Counted from the stretch's first letter, positions 53,482 through 63,121 are shown. The stretch: 64,000 nt of DNA from Cyanobacteria bacterium P01_A01_bin.123 (GCA_039815185.1 JBCBZT010000001.1:206149-270148); one strand, 5' to 3'. A program made the numbers and translations. The notes: generated by a model not told the origin, from the sequence alone.

Positions 53482-54684
53482 TTATTTGATGTCATGATGG
53501 AGTTGCTCAAGCATGTCTAGCACTGACTGGAGTTGCGATCGTTGCTGATCTATCGATAGGTCTGCATCAACGAGTATTCTTTGAACATGGGTATACATCT
53601 GGTTCAATGAAGACGTCAGTCTCTTGCGATCGCAAACAACAGACTGCGAGGACGCAGATGAACGCCCGCCTACCGATAGATTTTGCGAGATAAGATGAGC
53701 AGGCTGGGCTTTTGATTGAAGCGAACCGTTTGAGGACGGCTGTTTTAACTGTTTTAACTCCATTTGCTGGATAGTTTGCTGTAGGTTTTCAATCACCCCA
53801 TACATTTCCATTGGGTCAAACACCCGCAATAAACTGGTTTGAGTAACGATGCCTAAACCTCTGCCCCAATTCCAGGACACCACCAAACGCCCCACCCGTC
53901 GTTGCTGCATTTCCTGATGGGCTGTCCATAGCGAGTCTTTGGGGTTAAGGAGCAGCAGTGGACTACTCATGACCGTCTGCGCTTCAGTTTGACCTAGATC
54001 AATCTGAAATGCTTGAAACTGTACAATATCTCGTTCAGTCACGATACCCACAGGCTGTTCGATCTCCTCTGCATCGAGTTGTGTGATCACCACGCAACTG
54101 ACGCGATGGATTGCCATTAACTGTGTCAGCTGCAAAATAGTCGTGGTCAACGGCGCATGAATGACGTCAGTTGTCATCACATCCGAAACACGGCGAAATC
54201 GCAGCAGGTTAGCCGGACGTAGCACCTGGCGAATGCTTTCGTGGGAAAGGACGCCCACTAACTGTGCTTGATCATCCACAATTGGTAAATGTCGAATGCG
54301 ATAGCGACGAAACAAAAACAGGGCCGCAAAAATATCCTGCACGGAGCGCTCAGGCAATGTGATCACAGGATGAACCATGACATCTGCCACGGTCACTGTT
54401 TGAAAGTCGATGACGTTGGCCGTCAATCGCACCACATCACGCTCAGTCAAAATGCCCAGTATTTCCCGCCCTTGCATGACAAGGACACAACTGGCACGCG
54501 CCGTTTTAGCACCGTCTGACGGCGTTACGTCCTCTGCTAAGCAGCAAGTATGGCGATGGGCCTGGCTAATGAGGGCGATCGCATCTACCAATAGCGTATC
54601 GGGTGAAACCGTCAGCGGTTGGCGCTCGATAGCATCTTCTAGATCGGGAACCCAGGAAAGTGTTGTCTCAAAGGGCATAGGCAT
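53482..54684 (-). CDS. Four-CBS-domain protein with helical C-terminus
   Basis: GILTERDVV, IRHLPIVD, GIVTERDIV, GIVTQTSLL. Confidence 0.88.
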   Translation of the reverse strand: MPMPFETTLSWVPDLEDAIERQPLTVSPDTLLVDAIALISQAHRHTCCLAEDVTPSDGAKTARASCVLVMQGREILGILTERDVVRLTANVIDFQTVTVADVMVHPVITLPERSVQDIFAALFLFRRYRIRHLPIVDDQAQLVGVLSHESIRQVLRPANLLRFRRVSDVMTTDVIHAPLTTTILQLTQLMAIHRVSCVVITQLDAEEIEQPVGIVTERDIVQFQAFQIDLGQTEAQTVMSSPLLLLNPKDSLWTAHQEMQQRRVGRLVVSWNWGRGLGIVTQTSLLRVFDPMEMYGVIENLQQTIQQMELKQLKQPSSNGSLQSKAQPAHLISQNLSVGGRSSASSQSVVCDRKRLTSSLNQMYTHVQRILVDADLSIDQQRSQLQSVLDMLEQLHHDIK

Positions 54685-54799: not shown

Positions 54800-54880
54800 G
54801 GGATGTAACGCTTTGGCCTCGGGAAAGCAATTTATCTATATCTTTGAACAAGATTTTGGTATATAATGGAGGGATGTTAC
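54800..54880 (+). promoter_or_regulatory. Conserved non-coding motif downstream of recombinase-domain gene 1
   Basis: GGGATGTAACGCTTT...AGATTTTGGTATATAATGGAGGGATGTTAC; repeated at 56493-56572. Confidence 0.55.
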
Positions 54881-54975: not shown

Positions 54976-55323
54976 TCATGGGCTCTGAGGGTTGATGCCT
55001 CGCGTTCTAGGGGATCTGCCGTAGAGTCGATCCAATACGCGCTTTACGGAAATACGCTGCCAAGCCTGCCCCCGCTTAGTGGTGTAGCTCTGCTGGTTCA
55101 GCCAATCTGCGATTTTTTGCAAAGATTTGCCGGACTTATGGTGACGGCGAATCAGCTCAATGATCTCACATTCTGCTGGATCATCGATGAGTTCACCGTT
55201 GACTGATCTTTGCCCGAAGGCTGGTGAGCCGTAGCCCGCGTAGCCACCGCTACAAGCTTTGGCCTGCCGCCCTTGCTCAAGTCTTTTGAAAACCTCATGT
55301 CTTTTTAGATGTTCAGCGCTCAT
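54976..55323 (-). CDS. Stand-alone serine-recombinase 'Recombinase' (DNA-binding) domain protein, copy 1
   Basis: RLEQGRQAKA.SGGYAGYGSPAFG...SLQKIADWLNQQ.YTTKRG..W....V.RVL; no catalytic Y.RVS domain. Confidence 0.75.
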   Translation of the reverse strand: MSAEHLKRHEVFKRLEQGRQAKACSGGYAGYGSPAFGQRSVNGELIDDPAECEIIELIRRHHKSGKSLQKIADWLNQQSYTTKRGQAWQRISVKRVLDRLYGRSPRTRGINPQSP

Positions 55324-55389
55324 CGCCGTTGGCAGCTTATCGACCTTGCCCTCAGTGTATCAATATAAATTAGGTCAAAGAAAAGACGA

Positions 55390-55749
55390 ATGGAGAAGAA
55401 GTATCCAAGTGACTTAAGCGACAAACAGTGGGAAATTGTCCACAATTTTTACAAGCATCAATACGGTGGGAGAGGCCGTCCACCATCAAAACGGCTGCGC
55501 GAGATATGGAATGCGATCCTGTATATGAACCAGGGCGAGGTAAGTTGGCGGAAGCTGCCGAAAGACTTTCCGCCATGGCGTATCGTGTATAGTAATCTCC
55601 TCAAGCTATCGAAAAGCGGTAAGTATGAGATGATCATGCGTGCCTTGAACCAGGATGTGCATCTCAAGGTTAGTAAAGAAGCAAGCTCCTCGGTTGCTAT
55701 TGATGACCATCAATCGGTTAAAAGCGAGTCACCAAAAGAATTAGGCTAA
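55390..55749 (+). mobile_element. IS5-family transposase N-terminal fragment (DUF4096-like)
   Basis: YPSDLSDKQWE, GRP....REIWNAILY, WRKLPKDFPPW..VY; ends just after AID.QSVK. Confidence 0.8.
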
Positions 55750-55874
55750 AAGATTGGTAATTCTCAGCCCAGTAGCTAATTGGTGTGAGGTGATTTAGGA
55801 GGGCGCGAAGCGGAGAATTGCCCTATCCATGAATCATGCCCCAAACCGTTAACGAGATTGGGTAATACTCAAGG

Positions 55875-56190
55875 GGTAATGATGGAATTGTTAAAGTGAG
55901 ATCGCAGTCATTGCATCCTATCCATGCCCAGTTGCCCCAAATGTAGCACCGAGCGCACCGTCAAAAACGGGCGTATTCACATTGGTAAGTAGCGTTTCCT
56001 TTGTCAAGGCTGCGGTTATCAATTCGTCGAAAACCCCACCGATAAACGCATTGATCAGGCGACTCGGGAACTGATTGACCGACTGTTGCTAGAGCGGCTC
56101 CCCATGGCAGGCATTGCCCGAGCGGTGCAAGTCTCAGAGCAGTGGCTTCAGGATTATGTCAATTGTAAAGCCGCTCAAACCTCACGGAGA
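55875..56190 (+). mobile_element. IS1-family remnant (InsA-like, nonsense mutation)
   Basis: GGTAATGATG end; from 55924 MPSCPKC...VKNGRIHIGK*RFLCQGCGYQF...GIARAVQVS..WL, with TAG at 55990. Confidence 0.8.
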
Positions 56191-56426
56191 CTGTAAGCCT
56201 GCACCCAGCGATAGATCGTCGTGTGCTCAACCTCAACCCTGCGTTCAACCATCATCTCTTCTAAATCTCGGTAGCTCAAGCCATAGCGTAGGTACCACCG
56301 GACATTCAGCAGGATGATCTCAGCGTGAAAGTGACGCCATTTGAATGGGGGGGAAGCCGACATTTTGGGATAGATGCAATTGGCCTTACCATCAAACGAT
56401 CTACGCCCTGTTTTTGCAACAGAGCC
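56190..56426 (-). mobile_element. IS6-family remnant (left end plus transposase N-terminus)
   Basis: Terminal GGCTCTGTTGCAAA at 56426-56413; from ATG 56363 FKWRHF..EIILL.VRWYLRY.LSYRDLEEMM.ER...HTTIYRWVQ. Confidence 0.85.
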
Positions 56427-56492
56427 GAAAATCGTTGCTATCACAAACGTTTGAACCCATACGAATGACAGAGCCACGAATGCTCCTGACTG

Positions 56493-56572
56493 GGGATGTA
56501 ACGCTTTATTTCAGTTATGAGTTTAAAGATCAAGGTTTTTAACAGATTTAGGTATATACTGAGGGATGTTAC
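56493..56572 (+). promoter_or_regulatory. Conserved non-coding motif downstream of recombinase-domain gene 2
   Basis: GGGATGTAACGCTTT...AGATTTAGGTATATACTGAGGGATGTTAC. Confidence 0.55.
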
Positions 56573-56607
56573 GCGATAAATGCTCAACTGATTACCTCGC
56601 AAGGTTT

Positions 56608-57042
56608 TCAGCTCCCCATGGTTTCAACATTGCTATTGTCAGACATGAATTGAGCCATTTGGAGGTTCCTCGGCGTTTTTGCAGCGATTCCTTGGGTTCT
56701 GGGCGTTTTTCCATAGAGTCGATCTAACACTCGCTTAACGGAAATGCGCTGCCAAGATTGTCCTCGCTTGGTGGTGTAGCCCTGCTGGTTTAGCCAGTCT
56801 GCGATTTTTTGCAAAGACTTGCCGGACTTATGATGACGGCGAATCAGGTCAATGATTTGGCATTCTGTCGGATCATCTACCAGTTCACCGTCCACTGAGT
56901 TTTGCCCAAAGGCAGGCGATCCGTAGCCCGCATAGCCACCACTTCCTGCTTTTGCCCGTCTCCCTTGGTCTAGCCTTTCCCAAATTGCGCGGCTTTGTAG
57001 GTTTTCGGCACTCATAGCTGCAAGTAATGGGTGAGCATACAT
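56608..57042 (-). CDS. Stand-alone serine-recombinase 'Recombinase' domain protein, copy 2
   Basis: Highly similar to 54976-55323 from MSAE onward; no room for a catalytic domain before the ferredoxin gene. Confidence 0.78.
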   Translation of the reverse strand: MYAHPLLAAMSAENLQSRAIWERLDQGRRAKAGSGGYAGYGSPAFGQNSVDGELVDDPTECQIIDLIRRHHKSGKSLQKIADWLNQQGYTTKRGQSWQRISVKRVLDRLYGKTPRTQGIAAKTPRNLQMAQFMSDNSNVETMGS

Positions 57043-57082
57043 TTTAGTTTATCAGTTTCAGTTTTTTTAATTGGAGAAATTC

Positions 57083-57379
57083 ATGGCAACGTACAAAGTC
57101 CAACTTGTAAATAATGATGGGTTGGATGTCACTATAGATGTCCCAGACGATCAATACATTGTTGATGCGGCAGAAGAGCAGGGCGTTGATTTACCCGTTT
57201 CCTGCCGGGCTGGTTCTTGTTCTACTTGTGCAGGCAAGCTTGTTTCTGGTGAAGTTGATCAGTCAGATCAGGTATTTTTAGATAGCGATCAACTAGAGGC
57301 AGGGTTCGTATTAACCTGTGTTGCTTATCCCGTCTCAGACTGCAAAATTAAAACTCACGAAGAAGAAAATTTGTACTAA
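57083..57379 (+). CDS. petF: Plant-type [2Fe-2S] ferredoxin
   Basis: [37 protein letters not shown]. Confidence 0.93.
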
Positions 57380-57480
57380 GTTTTGGCCAAATTCAGATCT
57401 GGAAGTTTTTCTAAAAGAAAACTCCAAATCCCGAAATGGCCTTGATGGGGGCAACATATTATTTATTTGGAGATGCAGAT

Positions 57481-57804
57481 ATGGGTACGGCTACGTTTAT
57501 TCAAGATGAAACTGAATTTGATTCGCTCCTCGCGAATGAGACGCTATTAGTTGTAGACTGCACCGCTACTTGGTGTGGGCCCTGCAAGCTTGTGGCACCT
57601 TTGATGGATCAACTAGCTGATGACTATAGCGATCGCGTTAAGGTCTTCAAGGTAGATTTAGATGAGAATCGGCCTGTCGCCAAACGATTTGGCATTAAAA
57701 GCATCCCGGCTGTCTTGTTCTTTAAGCAAGGTGAATTGGCGGATACCGTTGTCGGTGCCAAACCGTATGAGGAATTTAGCGATGCGGTAAAACGCCTCTT
57801 ATAG
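57481..57804 (+). CDS. Thioredoxin
   Basis: WCGPC active site, SIPAV cis-Pro motif; GGAG RBS before ATG 57481. Confidence 0.93.
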   Translation: MGTATFIQDETEFDSLLANETLLVVDCTATWCGPCKLVAPLMDQLADDYSDRVKVFKVDLDENRPVAKRFGIKSIPAVLFFKQGELADTVVGAKPYEEFSDAVKRLL

Positions 57805-57875
57805 CGCCAGATTTTTGTGACGGATATCAGTGCATCGGCTTCAACCTAATCATCCTGACCCGCGGAGGTTCTGCT

Positions 57876-58124
57876 ATGTCAACTGTTCAAATTGTTCGAT
57901 GTCCCAACTGTGGCAGTTTGGCAGAACGTCAGTTGTTGAGCGATCGCCGAGTTCCCATCGACGATCAGGTCATTCAGACTGCATGCCCAGTTTGTGACTA
58001 CCTGATGGTGATGAGCGTATCAACCGGCAGCGTGATAGAAGCCTATGCACCGGGTCGATCCAGTCAGCCTAGCCACTATAGTCCGATAGCCAGTCAACCC
58101 CGTTTGCTTGTCCAAACTATCTAA
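57876..58124 (+). CDS. Small Zn-ribbon protein
   Basis: CPNCG...CPVCDYLM; GGAGG RBS; lies within the operon. Confidence 0.8.
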   Translation: MSTVQIVRCPNCGSLAERQLLSDRRVPIDDQVIQTACPVCDYLMVMSVSTGSVIEAYAPGRSSQPSHYSPIASQPRLLVQTI

Positions 58125-58153
58125 CGAGTCCTCTTCAATCCAGGTTAATACCC

Positions 58154-58768
58154 ATGATGAAAGCAGCAGACATCATGACCCGAGATGTGGTCACTATTCG
58201 CGGCTCTGCCACTGTTGCAGAAGCTGTGGAACTGATGAAAACCAGAGGATTGCGTGCCTTGATTGTTGAACCCCGACATGACGCTGATCCCTACGGCATG
58301 GTGACCGAAACCGACATTATTTATAAGATCGCTGCCTATGGGCATGATCCGAAGCAAATGCGGGTCTATGAGATTATGACCAAGCCTTGTATCGTGGTCA
58401 ACCCAGACCTGGGCGTTGAATACGTAGCCCGATTATTTGCTCAAACGCGAATTCGTCGGGCTCCGGTGATTCAAGGCTCTCTATTAGGCGTTATATCGAT
58501 TAGCGATATCCTTAACAAGAGTGATTTCGTTGAAAAGCCAAAGCCTCTATTTATCGAAGACCGAATTGAAGTTGCCCGTGAAGAAGCTCGGGCCATTTGC
58601 GAGCAGCAAGGTGCTACCTCACCTGCTTGTGCGGCAGCTTGGGATGTCGTTGAAGAACTTCAAATGGCAGCGGCCGATCAACGCGGTCAGAAGCAGGAAA
58701 AATCTGCTTTTCAATCGTATTGCGAAGAAAATCCTGATGCGCCAGAAGCGCGAGTTTATGAAGATTAA
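58154..58768 (+). CDS. CBS-CP12 fusion protein
   Basis: CBS pair followed by C(8)C-AAAWDVVEEL and YCEENPDAPEARVYED. Confidence 0.92.
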   Translation: MMKAADIMTRDVVTIRGSATVAEAVELMKTRGLRALIVEPRHDADPYGMVTETDIIYKIAAYGHDPKQMRVYEIMTKPCIVVNPDLGVEYVARLFAQTRIRRAPVIQGSLLGVISISDILNKSDFVEKPKPLFIEDRIEVAREEARAICEQQGATSPACAAAWDVVEELQMAAADQRGQKQEKSAFQSYCEENPDAPEARVYED

Positions 58769-58806
58769 GTTGCTTCATTCAGAGTTCAAAAGGGGGACAA
58801 AGCACC

Positions 58807-59262
58807 ATGATGAAAGCAGAACAGATCATGACCAAAAACGTGATCAAGATTCGTGGCTCCGCAACCGTTGCTGATGCGGTAGGACTGATGAAAGAGAAAG
58901 GCTTGCGTGCACTGATTGTTGAACCACGCAATGAATCTGATCCCTATGGGATGGTAACTGAGACAGATATTATCTATAAAATCGCGGCTTTTGGTCATGA
59001 CCCAAAACAGATGCGGGTCTATGAAATCATGACTAAGCCCTGTGTAGTGGTCAACCCAGAACTTGGCGTTGAGTATGTCGCTCGATTGTTTGCCCAAGCG
59101 CGAATCCGTCGTGCCCCTGTCATCAAAAATGGACTTCTGGGCATTATTTCTGTTAGCGATATTCTCAAGAAAAGTGACTTTGTCGAAAAGCCAAAGAGCA
59201 ACTTTGAACTGTACTGTGAAGATAATCCAAATGCTCTAGAAGCCCGAATTTATGAAGATTAA
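58807..59262 (+). CDS. CBS-pair paralog retaining only the CP12 C-terminal tail
   Basis: CBS pair nearly identical to the upstream gene; ends NFELYCEDNPNALEARIYED; lacks AWD.VEEL. Confidence 0.9.
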   Translation: MMKAEQIMTKNVIKIRGSATVADAVGLMKEKGLRALIVEPRNESDPYGMVTETDIIYKIAAFGHDPKQMRVYEIMTKPCVVVNPELGVEYVARLFAQARIRRAPVIKNGLLGIISVSDILKKSDFVEKPKSNFELYCEDNPNALEARIYED

Positions 59263-59280
59263 GTAGCAGGATAAAGATTA

Positions 59281-59389
59281 GATATAGCGCTGGCCAGATT
59301 GCTTAATGCACCGAGTATCGCCAAGATGCTGAGTCCACAAGCAATCTGGCTCGCGGTAGCGCACAAAGCTTTGTGGCTACCGCTATATC
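59281..59389 (+). repeat. ~109-bp structured dispersed repeat, best-preserved copy
   Basis: GATATAGCG...CGCTATATC termini with two internal hairpins. Confidence 0.88.
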
Positions 59390-59433
59390 TGCGGCTACCG
59401 ATGAGTCTTGCCAAGCAAGATATGACTGGCATA

Positions 59434-59472
59434 GCCCTTATGGACTTCTTACAGCAAGAAGTCCATAAGGGC
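59434..59472. terminator. Perfect 17-bp-stem hairpin between convergent genes
   Basis: GCCCTTATGGACTTCTT-ACAGC-AAGAAGTCCATAAGGGC; no U-tract. Confidence 0.5.
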
Positions 59473-59547
59473 ATTACCGCAACCTCCAGCAATAAAGCTG
59501 GTTGGCACCATAAACCACCTAGCCTTTACGGCACTATGTAGAAAAAC

Positions 59548-60186
59548 CTACCAGAGGGCGCGGGGGACTGACTCAGAAGCCTCAAGACGACGGGTAAGTT
59601 CAGCACTGGTACTGGGTGGAATGAGGACACGGTTGATGGCATGAATCACACCGTTACTGGCCGGTACGTCAGGCAAGATCACGCTACTGTCATTGACAAC
59701 AACCCGGTCAGGGTCAACACGAACAGCTACACCACCGTTAAGCGTATCAACAACGCCTGTTTCGAGTTCGTCAGATGTGACTTCGTCAGGGACGACATGA
59801 TACGTCAGGACTTCAGTCAGTAAGTCAAGATTTTCGGGCTCAAGCAGAGCTTCAAGAACGCCGTCGGGTAGGTCGTCAAATGCATCATCCGTAGGTGCAA
59901 AGACCGTGAAAGGGCCTTCACTCGATAGCGTATCAACTAAACCTGCCGCTTGGACAGCTTGTACAAGCGTGTCAAAGTTATCATTGCCGGCTGCAACATC
60001 CACAATTGTGCCGTCAGTTTGGGCCATCAACATCGGAGCAGCGGCAACCGTCGGTAAGTCGTCTGCCGACGGACGCGCGATCGCAGGGGCAGCCGTACCG
60101 ACAAAGCTGCCGGTGCCGATTAGCAAAGCGATCGCCCATGGCATAGAAGAAATGGGAAGAAATGACATAACTGATGACTCCCTCAC
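59548..60186 (-). CDS. Fasciclin (FAS1) domain protein, secreted
   Basis: Signal peptide; GPFTVFAPTDDAF, VLTYHVV, ASNGVIHAINRVLIP. Confidence 0.92.
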   Translation of the reverse strand: MRESSVMSFLPISSMPWAIALLIGTGSFVGTAAPAIARPSADDLPTVAAAPMLMAQTDGTIVDVAAGNDNFDTLVQAVQAAGLVDTLSSEGPFTVFAPTDDAFDDLPDGVLEALLEPENLDLLTEVLTYHVVPDEVTSDELETGVVDTLNGGVAVRVDPDRVVVNDSSVILPDVPASNGVIHAINRVLIPPSTSAELTRRLEASESVPRALW

Positions 60187-60353
60187 GTTTACATTCCGTT
60201 ACACCCATATTCTAGAGTTGTTTTCAATTTTCACCCACATGTCTATCTAGCATCGTAAGGCGCTAGCGTTACTTCCAGGATCTCTCCACCGGCGATGCGA
60301 CAGCCTCGACGACCCATTTCTGCATGATTTATGGGTTCCTTACCCCTCAAACC

Positions 60354-61430
60354 TCACACTTTACGTTTAGTCAGTAAGCCGCCCAGCCCAACCGCGATCG
60401 CCATGCCAACTACGCTGGCAGGTTCAGGTACCGATACCCCACCCGCATTGACTTGGCTGATAAAGGTGTCGAAAATTTGAGTATAGTCGCGGCTGCGTTC
60501 TTCAATTAGGCCAGGGAAAACTGTATTGATAAACGCTAGATTATCCGTCTCTGGGTCATGCCAGGTTGCTCCCCCAGGAACGAGTGGATTGGACGTTTGA
60601 GTATAGCCGTCGAGATCACCAATCTCCCAATTAGTCGCCTCAGCAGCGAGCACGGGAACCACACCATCAAAAGCTTCTAAATCACTACAGCAACCGGTTC
60701 CGGCAGGATAGAAGGGATTTAACCCTGGGTTGGTTCTAGCATCAATACCCAAATCCGCTGCGATATCCAACGCTACATCCCTAAACTGACCATCGCTGGG
60801 ATTATCTGCAGCTGAAGGCCCGGCATTCAGATATAGATAATCCCCTACGATCAAACTGTCCATATTGATCATGACAATCGTATTGTCAATCTCTTCTGGC
60901 GTCATGGTCGCGACATAGTGCTCTGAACCGATCAGCCCAATTTCTTCAGCGCCAAACAAAATGAACTTTACTGTGTGTCTAGAGTCAGGGTCGAGGCGTT
61001 CAGCCAACTCAAGCAAGACGCCGACGCCAGACGAATTGTCGTTGGTGCCTTGCAGATTAGTGCGGTCAATGGTGGCACTACTGGGAGCCGTGTCATAGTG
61101 GGCACCGACAATAATTTGTTGACCAGAGGTGCCTTGCCGTTCCGCAATGATATTGGCAGACGTCAATGATTCATCTCCAAAGTCAAATGTGAATTCCTGC
61201 AGCTCTGGGGTATAGCCAAAGTCTCCGAGTCGCCCGCTGAGGTATGCGATCGCTTCCTGTTCTTTGTCAGTGCCAATACTGCGACCCGCTAGATTTGTCG
61301 ATAGATAATAGATTTCTTGGATGGCTGTTTCGCCATAGGTAAAGCTAGCAGCTGAGGCAACACTTGCCAGCACGGCTTGGGTGGCAACGGGTAAAACAGC
61401 ACATCCTAAGAGTTTTGTAACGAAGTTCAT
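60354..61430 (-). CDS. M28 family aminopeptidase with PEP-CTERM sorting signal
   Basis: GAHYD, GTNDNSSG, GAEEIGL.GS, INMDS, WH; C-terminal VPEP-TM-KRK. Confidence 0.88.
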   Translation of the reverse strand: MNFVTKLLGCAVLPVATQAVLASVASAASFTYGETAIQEIYYLSTNLAGRSIGTDKEQEAIAYLSGRLGDFGYTPELQEFTFDFGDESLTSANIIAERQGTSGQQIIVGAHYDTAPSSATIDRTNLQGTNDNSSGVGVLLELAERLDPDSRHTVKFILFGAEEIGLIGSEHYVATMTPEEIDNTIVMINMDSLIVGDYLYLNAGPSAADNPSDGQFRDVALDIAADLGIDARTNPGLNPFYPAGTGCCSDLEAFDGVVPVLAAEATNWEIGDLDGYTQTSNPLVPGGATWHDPETDNLAFINTVFPGLIEERSRDYTQIFDTFISQVNAGGVSVPEPASVVGMAIAVGLGGLLTKRKV

Positions 61431-61933
61431 AATGTCCTTTGACTCACTTTATTTCTGCTACGGGGAACAGTCAGTTACTTAGGCTTGACTAGGCCAGATG
61501 GCCGACAGTCAATAGGCTCTAGGCAACAACCGAAAACATTTTTCTAGAATCAAGCTAGTTTCAGAGCGTATTCTTATCTTGGATGCCGTTCTGTTTCAGG
61601 CATTACAAAATCAAGTTTATAAGTATTAAACTTTACCGACTTTAGTATTGGAGTTCGGCTTGAAATGGAATTCAGCTTGAAATTGTTGCGTTTTATTTTG
61701 CCAATATTAATAATCAATAGAAATCAAACAAAACCATCCGGAAATTATCCGAAATATGCATAATAGCTGACAACTTTAGGACTGTGAACCTTCACATAAA
61801 TCTCGGGTTGCTGTCCACACGTTTAGCGCTATATTGATAAAATTCTATTGGTATAGTTGCCCGAACAAATAGCGTGTCTCGGTTGAGGCTACCATAATCA
61901 GCATCAGGATCTAGTCAGGCTTGTCAGTTTCCT

Positions 61934-62647
61934 ATGATTCAGTCAACCCAGCCAATCTATGTTCAAATTGCCAATCACCTAAGACAAAAGATTCAGCAGG
62001 GAACTTATCAAGCAGGGGATAGACTCCCAAGTCAAAAGCAATTAGGGAATCAGTTTGGAGTCAATCGTCACACGGTTCGGCAAGCCTTTGATCTGCTGAA
62101 AGCTGAGGGGTTGTTGCGCGTCAATCGGGGGTTAGGGGCGTTCATTGAAGAAGCCCCGATTCGTTACCCGATTGGTAAGCGGGTTCGGTATAACGAATTT
62201 TTGCAGACCCAAGGACACACCAGTGAATACAAGTTTTTGCAAGCGGCTGAGATACCCGCGAATGAAAAAATTGCCGATTACTTGAAGCTGCAAATTGGTG
62301 AACCTGTCGCTCAGGTAGACTTGCTGGGCTTAGCCGATGACCGACCGCTGATCGTGAGTACGAGCTATTTTCCATCACGTCAGTTCCCAGGCTTATTAGC
62401 GCAGGTTCGAACAATCCAATCAATATCTAAGCTGATGCAAGGGGTTTATGGCTGCGATCACATTCGCAGCCATACCTATATCTCAACCCGAGCGGTGAGA
62501 ACGCAAGATGCCAAATTACTACAGGTGCCGCTCAAGCAGCCTATTTTGCTGGTCCAGGCAATTAACGTCGATCAAAATAATCGAGTGATTGAGTACACGG
62601 TGACCCGATTCCGAGGCGATGGTGTGGAGCTGAGTTTTGAACACTAA
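61934..62647 (+). CDS. phnF: PhnF-like GntR/UTRA transcriptional regulator
   Basis: FGVNRHTVRQA, IRYPIGKRVRYNE, TRFRGD. Confidence 0.75.
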   Translation: MIQSTQPIYVQIANHLRQKIQQGTYQAGDRLPSQKQLGNQFGVNRHTVRQAFDLLKAEGLLRVNRGLGAFIEEAPIRYPIGKRVRYNEFLQTQGHTSEYKFLQAAEIPANEKIADYLKLQIGEPVAQVDLLGLADDRPLIVSTSYFPSRQFPGLLAQVRTIQSISKLMQGVYGCDHIRSHTYISTRAVRTQDAKLLQVPLKQPILLVQAINVDQNNRVIEYTVTRFRGDGVELSFEH

Positions 62648-62650
62648 TCC

Positions 62651-62770
62651 TTGGTGATCAATCTGCAATTCTCCACCCAAGGTGGCCCGGTAAAAATGCA
62701 TGAACTGTTTGCCCAGTATCTCGATGATGTGGGTCTGAATATGCAGCTCAAAGAGGTCACATTTAGCAAG
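62651..62770 (+). pseudogene. Possible internal fragment of an ABC solute-binding protein
   Basis: ELFAQYLDDVGLNMQLKEV resembles the family-5 SBP 'Q.L..VG+.+.+' segment; no credible start. Confidence 0.35.
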
Positions 62771-62782
62771 TTTCTAGATTTA

Positions 62783-62815
62783 GAACCGGGCTTCTCTGCC
62801 AGAGAAGCCCGGTTC
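62783..62815. repeat. Palindromic small dispersed repeat / hairpin
   Basis: GAACCGGGCTTCTCT-GCC-AGAGAAGCCCGGTTC. Confidence 0.65.
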
Positions 62816-62907
62816 CTGCGCTGTGAGTTCTAACGTACACATCCTTGCCGGATATGACGAAGCGCTAGAATTTCAAATTCTACAATTAGTAAAGCTAGCT
62901 AGATGCC

Positions 62908-62940
62908 GTAGGGTGCTGTTAGGCAACGCCGTAACGCAGC
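62908..62940 (+). repeat. GTAG-type REP-like element
   Basis: GTAG followed by an imperfect palindrome GGTGCTGTTA-GGCAACGCC-GTAACGCAGC. Confidence 0.55.
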
Positions 62941-63000
62941 GCTTCGAGACTTAAAGTATTTGATCGAGAAGACGGGGAGATTGGATAGCACCATAATAGA

Positions 63001-63121
63001 TGACGTATAACTCCCCTAGGTTGGTGCTTATTTGTCAAAAGTGACGTATAAGTACCTCACTCATCATAATTAACTGTCAAAAGTGACATTTAGCACCCTG
63101 CTTTCCCGGAGTTATACGTCA
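63001..63121 (+). other. attC-like imperfect palindrome 1
   Basis: 14-bp arms TGACGTATAACTCC/GGAGTTATACGTCA containing AAC/GTT cores; inner GGTGCT..TGTCA / TGACA..AGCACC pairing. Confidence 0.55.

Follow-up and report, generated by a model that had tools for sequence, protein, structure and literature searches.

The described system closest to the locus treated here is the CBS-CP12/TrxA cluster (PMC6142219, 2018), in which a gene for a CBS-CP12 protein is found with a thioredoxin (Trx) gene, sometimes with genes for a ferredoxin (Fd) or an adenylate kinase (adk), and with a gene for a four-CBS-domain protein (CBS4) upstream. As far as the main text of that work goes, the cluster operon of Microcystis is induced by light and by high light, the four-CBS gene is not co-expressed with trxA, and the cluster tunes the Calvin-cycle enzyme phosphoribulokinase (PMC6142219). 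The same main text contains neither 'recombinase' nor 'promoter' and names no regulator, while its Fig. 1 or supplement may draw the gene discussed below; in the text of PMC5295598 and PMC3610870, as far as it goes and with three supplement files of the latter included, there is nothing on the cluster. We have analysed a stretch of 64,000 nt from Cyanobacteria bacterium P01_A01_bin.123 (GCA_039815185.1 JBCBZT010000001.1:206149-270148), hereafter the window, which holds the same cluster, with CBS-CP12 adjoining thioredoxin and a four-CBS gene upstream, and in addition two copies of a gene for a short protein. This protein consists of the end of helix E and the helix-turn-helix (HTH) half of a serine recombinase and likely acts as a sequence-specific DNA binder. 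Judging from the sequence, we regard the chances as evenly balanced that its family is a domesticated two-operator repressor of the Fd-Trx-CBS-CP12 operon; a candidate regulator, a candidate operator and a candidate promoter can in any case now be named for the CBS-CP12/TrxA cluster.

The two genes and the boxes predicted to drive them are the following:

54976..55323, minus strand: copy 1, stand-alone half-recombinase-domain protein of 115 aa (open reading frame, PF07508 match, dN/dS); groups with relatives from adk-type clusters
56608..57015, minus strand: copy 2, half-recombinase-domain protein of 135 aa from its MSAE start; the open-reading-frame finder extends it to 57042 (144 aa)
55354..55362, minus strand: predicted extended -10 (TGATACACT) of copy 1, a conserved box upstream of the MSAE ATG
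57046..57054, minus strand: predicted extended -10 (TGATAAACT) of copy 2, a conserved box upstream of the MSAE ATG, facing promoter B (see below)

Aligned from MSAE, as an earlier note on this DNA had proposed, the two proteins are identical at 86 of 107 residues. The note also had the recombinase domain nearly unchanged between them, which is true of the part that exists (70 of 78 residues identical within residues 25-102), but that part is only half a domain: PF07508 is matched above cut-off in both copies at profile positions 1-50 of 102. The lack of the catalytic Ser domain was borne out, neither copy matching PF00239 (Resolvase, the catalytic domain with the Ser nucleophile). Zinc ribbon and coiled coil are likewise absent from the copies, the conserved part of the protein stops near residue 105, and on the NCBIfam CcrB model both copies fall on residues 134-227. 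Since they are without a catalytic domain, a complete recombinase domain and a zinc ribbon, the copies are not members of the large serine recombinases. The predicted structure (predicted local distance difference test, pLDDT, 80.6) has a long N-terminal helix, a hairpin and three helices, and the ten best matches of a fold search were all serine-integrase structures, at weak E values of 0.008-0.05; together with the PF07508 match, these fold matches point to a recombinase-domain fold with its specificity helix. PF20552 (recombinase-like HTH, HTH_62) gave 16.5 and 17.9 bits for the two copies, below its gathering cut-off of 27 bits, and a search of solved structures by sequence with the family profile returned no real match.

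Both copies are real open reading frames under purifying selection. Between them, the Nei-Gojobori method gives dS 0.96, dN 0.10 and dN/dS 0.105 (Fisher p 2e-15), and the family median is 0.074 (212 pairs, dS 0.1-1.5); the check that the note had called for was thus run, the values are far below 1, and its view of a stand-alone DNA-binding family under purifying selection is supported. That both frames are decaying remnants of mobile recombinase genes, for which one could point to the insertion sequence (IS) fragments between the copies and to one frameshifted relative (L191), is scarcely credible and for the family is refuted: dN/dS stays at 0.07-0.10, start point and length are constant across the family, and synteny is fixed. 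Copy 1 alone could be silent, an IS adjoining its promoter. As for the starts, each copy has a box TG-A-TA(A/C)ACT whose last base precedes the end of its MSAE ATG by 33 nt, and in the nearest relatives this distance is 33-34 nt, while a looser TGnTAnnnT pattern occurs in only 20 of 94 upstream regions (7.8 in shuffles). Because the ATG at 57042 would precede the transcript start that this box would set, copy 2 likely starts at the MSAE ATG at 57015, which widens its gap to the ferredoxin ATG (57083) to 67 nt from the 40 bp noted earlier.

The family extends well beyond the window. Of 1036 candidate proteins between 63 and 202 aa in length, 1034 matched at E<=0.001; the 120 best-scoring of these measure 112-151 aa at 71-100% identity, and every one that carries an organism name is cyanobacterial. 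We found 71 genome loci and analysed the 68 cyanobacterial ones, three non-cyanobacterial matches (L069-L071) being dropped; the window's own loci, the catalytic relatives L096-L101 and duplicates were removed before counting, and the frameshifted L191 was left out of the tree. In none of the 68 loci does the open frame extend more than 77 codons upstream of the match, so that no catalytic domain is fused to it. The survey of stand-alone PF07508 homologues and their neighbours, also suggested earlier, hence turned up the short protein in 68 cyanobacterial loci and not full-length integrases. Literature searches found no description of this protein family, whose members are called recombinase or invertase in databases, thereby hiding it; the family is real and conserved and, not having been found described, seemingly new to the literature.

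The next tier of relatives consists of proteins of 220-260 aa that carry PF00239 and the same PF07508 half, from which we infer a small resolvase-type recombinase, truncated within helix E, as the origin of the family. The parent suggested by the earlier note, a large serine recombinase, is thereby replaced by resolvase-plus-half-recombinase-domain enzymes of ~230 aa. Four of these (L096, L098, L099 and L101) share with the family the C-terminal half, at 41-60% identity over ~100 residues, and the same end helix. They differ in having a catalytic domain of their own fused to the half-domain, whereas the family begins in the middle of helix E, and in being without the cluster and without the strict motif described below in the 1.5-kb flanks fetched. 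Four other proteins of 550-850 aa (P0141, P0155, P0158 and P0255) show five or six matches to the HTH module, which suggests tandem HTH arrays.

When the two window copies are aligned, DNA conservation continues past both stop codons, a point absent from the earlier note. Behind each copy, on the strand opposite to the gene, GGGATGT(A/T)AC occurs twice, at distances of 71 and 70 bp; the fuller form of the motif is GA-GGGATGT(A/T)AC, and its proximal copy stands within a few bases after a TAnnnT box:

54800..54809, plus strand: distal motif A, GGGATGTAAC, candidate auxiliary operator
54862..54867, plus strand: predicted -10 box TATAAT of promoter A, antisense into copy 1
54871..54880, plus strand: proximal motif A, GGGATGTTAC, 71 bp from distal motif A, over the predicted +1
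56493..56502, plus strand: distal motif B, GGGATGTAAC
56555..56560, plus strand: predicted -10 box TATACT of promoter B, ~515 nt upstream of the ferredoxin ATG
56563..56572, plus strand: proximal motif B, GGGATGTTAC, 70 bp from distal motif B

The arrangement recurs across the family. Among 109 distinct downstream regions, a -10 box with a site is found on the antisense strand in 90 and on the sense strand in 2, against a mean of 1.5 in shuffles; the pair is present in 62 of the 109, and in 59 of these 62 the spacing is 70-72 bp. The 12-mer GAGGGATGTWAC occurs three times in the 8.09-Mb genome, each time at this locus, and a search of that genome with the strict motif found no wider regulon. 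A looser 10-mer has seven scattered single copies elsewhere in the genome. Across the 401 sampled genomes, the pair pattern is present in 10, nine times beside the gene and once (G199) without gene and -10 box, while the reversed control pattern matched once. An exact or -10-linked site was found in 0 of 20 other thioredoxin regions, a weak control as none of them lies within a CBS-CP12 cluster. The built-in promoter scan, which requires a -35 match, missed both -10 boxes. A structured RNA at the motif was considered and rejected: one stretch of the window reaches z -3.4, but z falls below -2 in only 2 of 23 loci per strand, and Rfam gave no match in the motif region. What can be read from this is a predicted two-operator layout, with one site over the promoter and an auxiliary site at a fixed spacing.

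Helix E is the oligomerisation helix of serine recombinases, and part of it is kept here. This, the likeness to the C-terminal half of the intact ~230-aa recombinases (47-60% identity) and the patchy distribution (the short form is present in 24 of the 401 genomes of the phylum, at E below 1e-50) would fit a protein that assists a catalytic serine recombinase in recombination or inhibits it as a dominant-negative partner, with the repeats as recombination sites. We hold this to be very improbable. Rather than inverted half-sites, the repeats are direct ones at a distance of 70 bp and are tied to a -10 box; this genome has no ~230-aa relative (only the two matches), its three Resolvase domains lie in frames of 412-734 aa on other contigs, and in the 68 loci neither an integrase nor element ends belong to the cluster, as far as neighbour clustering shows.

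The genes around the two copies bear on the question of which transcript the -10 element serves:

53482..54684, minus strand: four-CBS-domain protein (CBS4), the most constant neighbour (domain match, neighbour count)
57083..57379, plus strand: plant-type ferredoxin, first gene of the predicted target operon (profile matches)
57502..57804, plus strand: thioredoxin (query range; the open reading frame may begin a few codons earlier)
57876..58124, plus strand: small zinc (Zn)-ribbon protein of 82 aa, conserved in the cluster
58154..58768, plus strand: CBS-CP12 fusion (domain match)
58807..59262, plus strand: second CBS-CP12 with a truncated CP12 domain (domain match)

The nearest recognised downstream gene encodes the four-CBS protein in 60 of the 68 loci, and the nearest recognised divergent gene upstream is Trx in 33, Fd in 22 and Zn-ribbon in 2, that is in 57 of 68, which supports the tie to the Fd-Trx-CBS-CP12 operon that the earlier note had drawn; adk is often the first gene of the divergent operon. 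Where the locus is rearranged, the element moves with trx. In five loci (L057, L060, L061, L064 and L068) trx lies downstream on the same strand as the gene, and the site is flipped and stands 120-145 nt upstream of trx; in another (L065) the pair has left CBS4 and is now upstream of the relocated trx operon; an extra -10 box with a site lies between adk and trx in L194, and in L168 the pair with its -10 box is 334 nt upstream of adk, the operon being adk-Fd-Trx. The divergent spacer between gene and operon is at most 100 nt in 30 of 83 loci, with a minimum of 45 nt; the motif is found there in just 3 of the 83, the candidate sites being on the far side of the gene. Because the element follows trx, and because the spacer is short and rarely carries the motif, we think it quite probable that the -10 box is the operon promoter, whose mRNA would then run antisense through the whole regulator gene and head-on with the regulator promoter ~470 nt away; promoter B is likely the promoter of the Fd-Trx-CBS-CP12 operon of the window. 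RNA contigs of four runs span the Microcystis cluster, and these contigs carry neither strand nor start. Two side observations concern the neighbours: in CBS4, a W-N-W-G motif is invariant and the last CBS pair is followed by a conserved helix and then a variable tail, and the 82-aa Zn-ribbon protein, for which no family scored above cut-off, lies between trx and CBS-CP12 in 39 of 71 loci.

The protein and the motif are linked by a change that they share. In non-redundant loci, the motif ends in C at 68 of 68 scored loci with Arg90 and in A at 8 of 8 with Pro90. A single clade (support 99; quick tree and FastTree) unites the Pro90 proteins; its branch accounts for 1.6% of the tree length and has two further substitutions, G18A and Q69P, at positions where the other 82 of 82 proteins do not vary. 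Arg90 is a residue of the recognition helix: W88-QRISVKR is by inspection in register with Bxb1 helix 231-237, W88 being set against the Trp that precedes the Bxb1 specificity helix. In the account of 10.1101/2024.05.09.593242, helix 231-237 of Bxb1 sets three target bases. The site also keeps its place beside the gene in six loci where no trx operon is seen on the far side (L043, L045, L079, L088, L090 and L093), which ties it to the protein. On balance we consider the family protein probably the binder of the motif, and the natural helix variant and the natural motif variant are a ready pair for a comparison of specificity.

Several points weigh against this assignment and against the repressor model built on it. 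The change of Arg to Pro with C to A is a single event in one clade, so that the co-change is only suggestive; 15 Arg90 loci lack a scored proximal site (as does one Pro90 locus, two rows being unassigned), and distal sites that end in A also stand beside Arg90 proteins (L027, L047 and L048). Gene and motif are inherited together in one cluster and their co-occurrence is not independent, just as the 109 regions are mutually related and include many near-identical Microcystis loci. Motif pair and -10 box are kept in L168, where no regulator gene adjoins, and are intact beside a frameshifted family member in L191 (2287-2894). Among 80 metagenome loci fetched by CBS-CP12, 16 have the gene and the rest are mostly too short or of other contexts, L168 being the only cluster long enough yet without the gene, while L196 is a trx fragment only. 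Furthermore, no Foldseek match reached E 0.001, and 70-71 bp correspond to ~6.7 helical turns, which is not a whole number. In the region of L168 that keeps the pair without the gene (2300-2960), a short stretch resembles the start of the four-CBS gene.

The same observations leave room for a chromosomal factor such as RpaB as the binder of the motif, the recombinase fragment binding elsewhere or having another role in the cluster. RpaB sites near a transcription start site repress until high light, according to PMC6525291, and the similar core hexamer, the site near the start and the high-light induction all recall this system: with at most two mismatches, the core GT(T/A)ACA resembles one HLR1 half-site in 87 of 90 proximal and 62 of 62 distal sites, and the motif persists without an intact adjoining gene in the two loci just named. 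These likenesses also count against the family protein as binder. HLR1, however, is described in 10.1101/443713 as a pair of octamers 2 nt apart, whereas the motif here is mostly without a tandem partner. Measured against the HLR1 consensus, a partner with at most two mismatches is rare, being found in 12/90 and 0/90 proximal and in 5/62 and 14/62 distal sites; the 14 distal partners, which lie 10 bp away, speak for RpaB. The conserved GA-GGG flank is not known to be part of that consensus, the full motif is confined to the CBS-CP12/TrxA cluster and has no other copy in the genome, and the motif changes on the same branch as the protein helix. We therefore judge RpaB as the binder to be unlikely, though plausible enough to be weighed. 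In Microcystis loci such as L014 (5760-5800) the distal site has a second, HLR1-like half-site 10 bp away, and dual control by RpaB is possible in this clade.

Under the model that we prefer, the family protein would bind as a repressor to the two GA-GGGATGT(A/T)AC sites 70-71 bp apart, one of which covers the predicted +1 of the operon. If the protein does bind the motif, then binding very probably represses by blocking +1, perhaps with a short loop between the sites. The head-on promoters would create a mutual-inhibition switch: transcribing the operon would shut off the gene of its repressor, which in turn would keep the operon silent. A sensor domain is absent from the protein; as a candidate source of the signal, gene order alone suggests the linked four-CBS protein. 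An alternative is that the family protein recognises the motif yet works there as an activator or by bending the promoter region, or that its main targets are the divergent CBS4 gene and its own antisense RNA; this appears to us rather unlikely. In its favour, the distal site lies ~70 bp upstream of the predicted +1, much as an activator site would; gene, motif and CBS4 remain together where no trx operon is seen on the far side (L043 and L045 in 6-kb flanks; L079, L088, L090 and L093 in 1.5-kb flanks), the pair remains upstream of CBS4 in L062, and the separate expression of CBS4 and trxA in Microcystis would agree with it (PMC6142219). It has against it that the proximal site, which lies over the predicted +1, is conserved in more regions (90 of 109) than the pair (62), that the distance from distal site to CBS4 start varies between ~50 and ~260 nt, and that in L065 the pair parted from CBS4 and went with trx. 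The repressor model in its fullest form, that of a new transcription factor family which arose by loss of the catalytic domain, loops two operators, shuts the Trx/CBS-CP12 operon, is opposed by antisense mRNA and receives an adenylate input through CBS4, is offered tentatively, as somewhat less probable than its negation. If true, it would supply the missing regulator of the light-induced CBS-CP12/TrxA cluster in bloom- and mat-forming cyanobacteria.

The window also records how the two copies came together. Between them lie IS remnants that the earlier note did not mention:

55390..55749, plus strand: IS5-family transposase fragment (NF033580 positions 1-109 of 258)
55924..56196, plus strand: IS1 InsA-like fragment with an internal stop (PF03811 E 0.015, below cut-off, weak)
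56175..56477, minus strand: IS6-family transposase fragment (NF033587 positions 1-52 of 202)

Copy 1 and CBS4 show 72-77% DNA identity to adk-type clusters up to position 55364, where the IS remnants begin, and copy 2 with promoter B heads an Fd-Trx-Zn-CBS-CP12-CBS-CP12 operon without a CBS4 of its own; the window is therefore a mosaic of two old cluster lineages joined across IS remnants, each with its motif pair. No adk is left in the window cluster, IS debris now lies ahead of promoter A, and the -35 region of copy 1 may be gone. A recent tandem duplication is rejected, dS being 0.96 and the copies lying on different branches of the tree. The whole of contig L041 (1-7952) is 98.9% identical to window positions 55471-63016, while the other cluster of the same metagenome-assembled genome (L005) is at 72%; we do not claim a recent horizontal transfer of the copy-2 block, as a misbinned L041 contig explains the identity equally well. 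Just 3' of the second CBS-CP12 gene, at ~59282-59390, lies an interspersed repeat of ~105 bp with well over 100 blastn matches of 77-97% identity on many contigs of the genome.

Compared with known regulatory layouts, the head-on promoters resemble the arrangement at prgX, which likewise has a facing promoter. In the proposed model the likeness to PrgX of pCF10 extends to two operators, one of them over the promoter, and to a blocked polymerase; PrgX differs in its unrelated fold, its peptide sensor, its operators 91 bp apart and its looping, which was shown experimentally (as presented in PMC5552905). Excludons and noncontiguous operons, as outlined in PMC12288877, share with our prediction the feature that an operon mRNA covers a gene on the other strand. 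Here, in contrast, the gene lies in the predicted 5' leader, between the predicted promoter and the first operon gene and not between operon genes, so that this is no noncontiguous operon in the strict sense, and the product of the gene would regulate that very operon. Large serine integrases (Bxb1, 9iu2; LI integrase, 4kis; phiC31) are the best structural matches, and their specificity helix is kept in the family; compared with them, the family is without the catalytic domain, the second domain half and the zinc ribbon, and its candidate sites are direct repeats at a promoter, whereas large integrases use att half-sites. If the proposed model is true, the family would illustrate cleanly how the DNA-binding module of a recombinase was turned into a transcription factor, and the catalytic parent family, which survives, is available for comparison.
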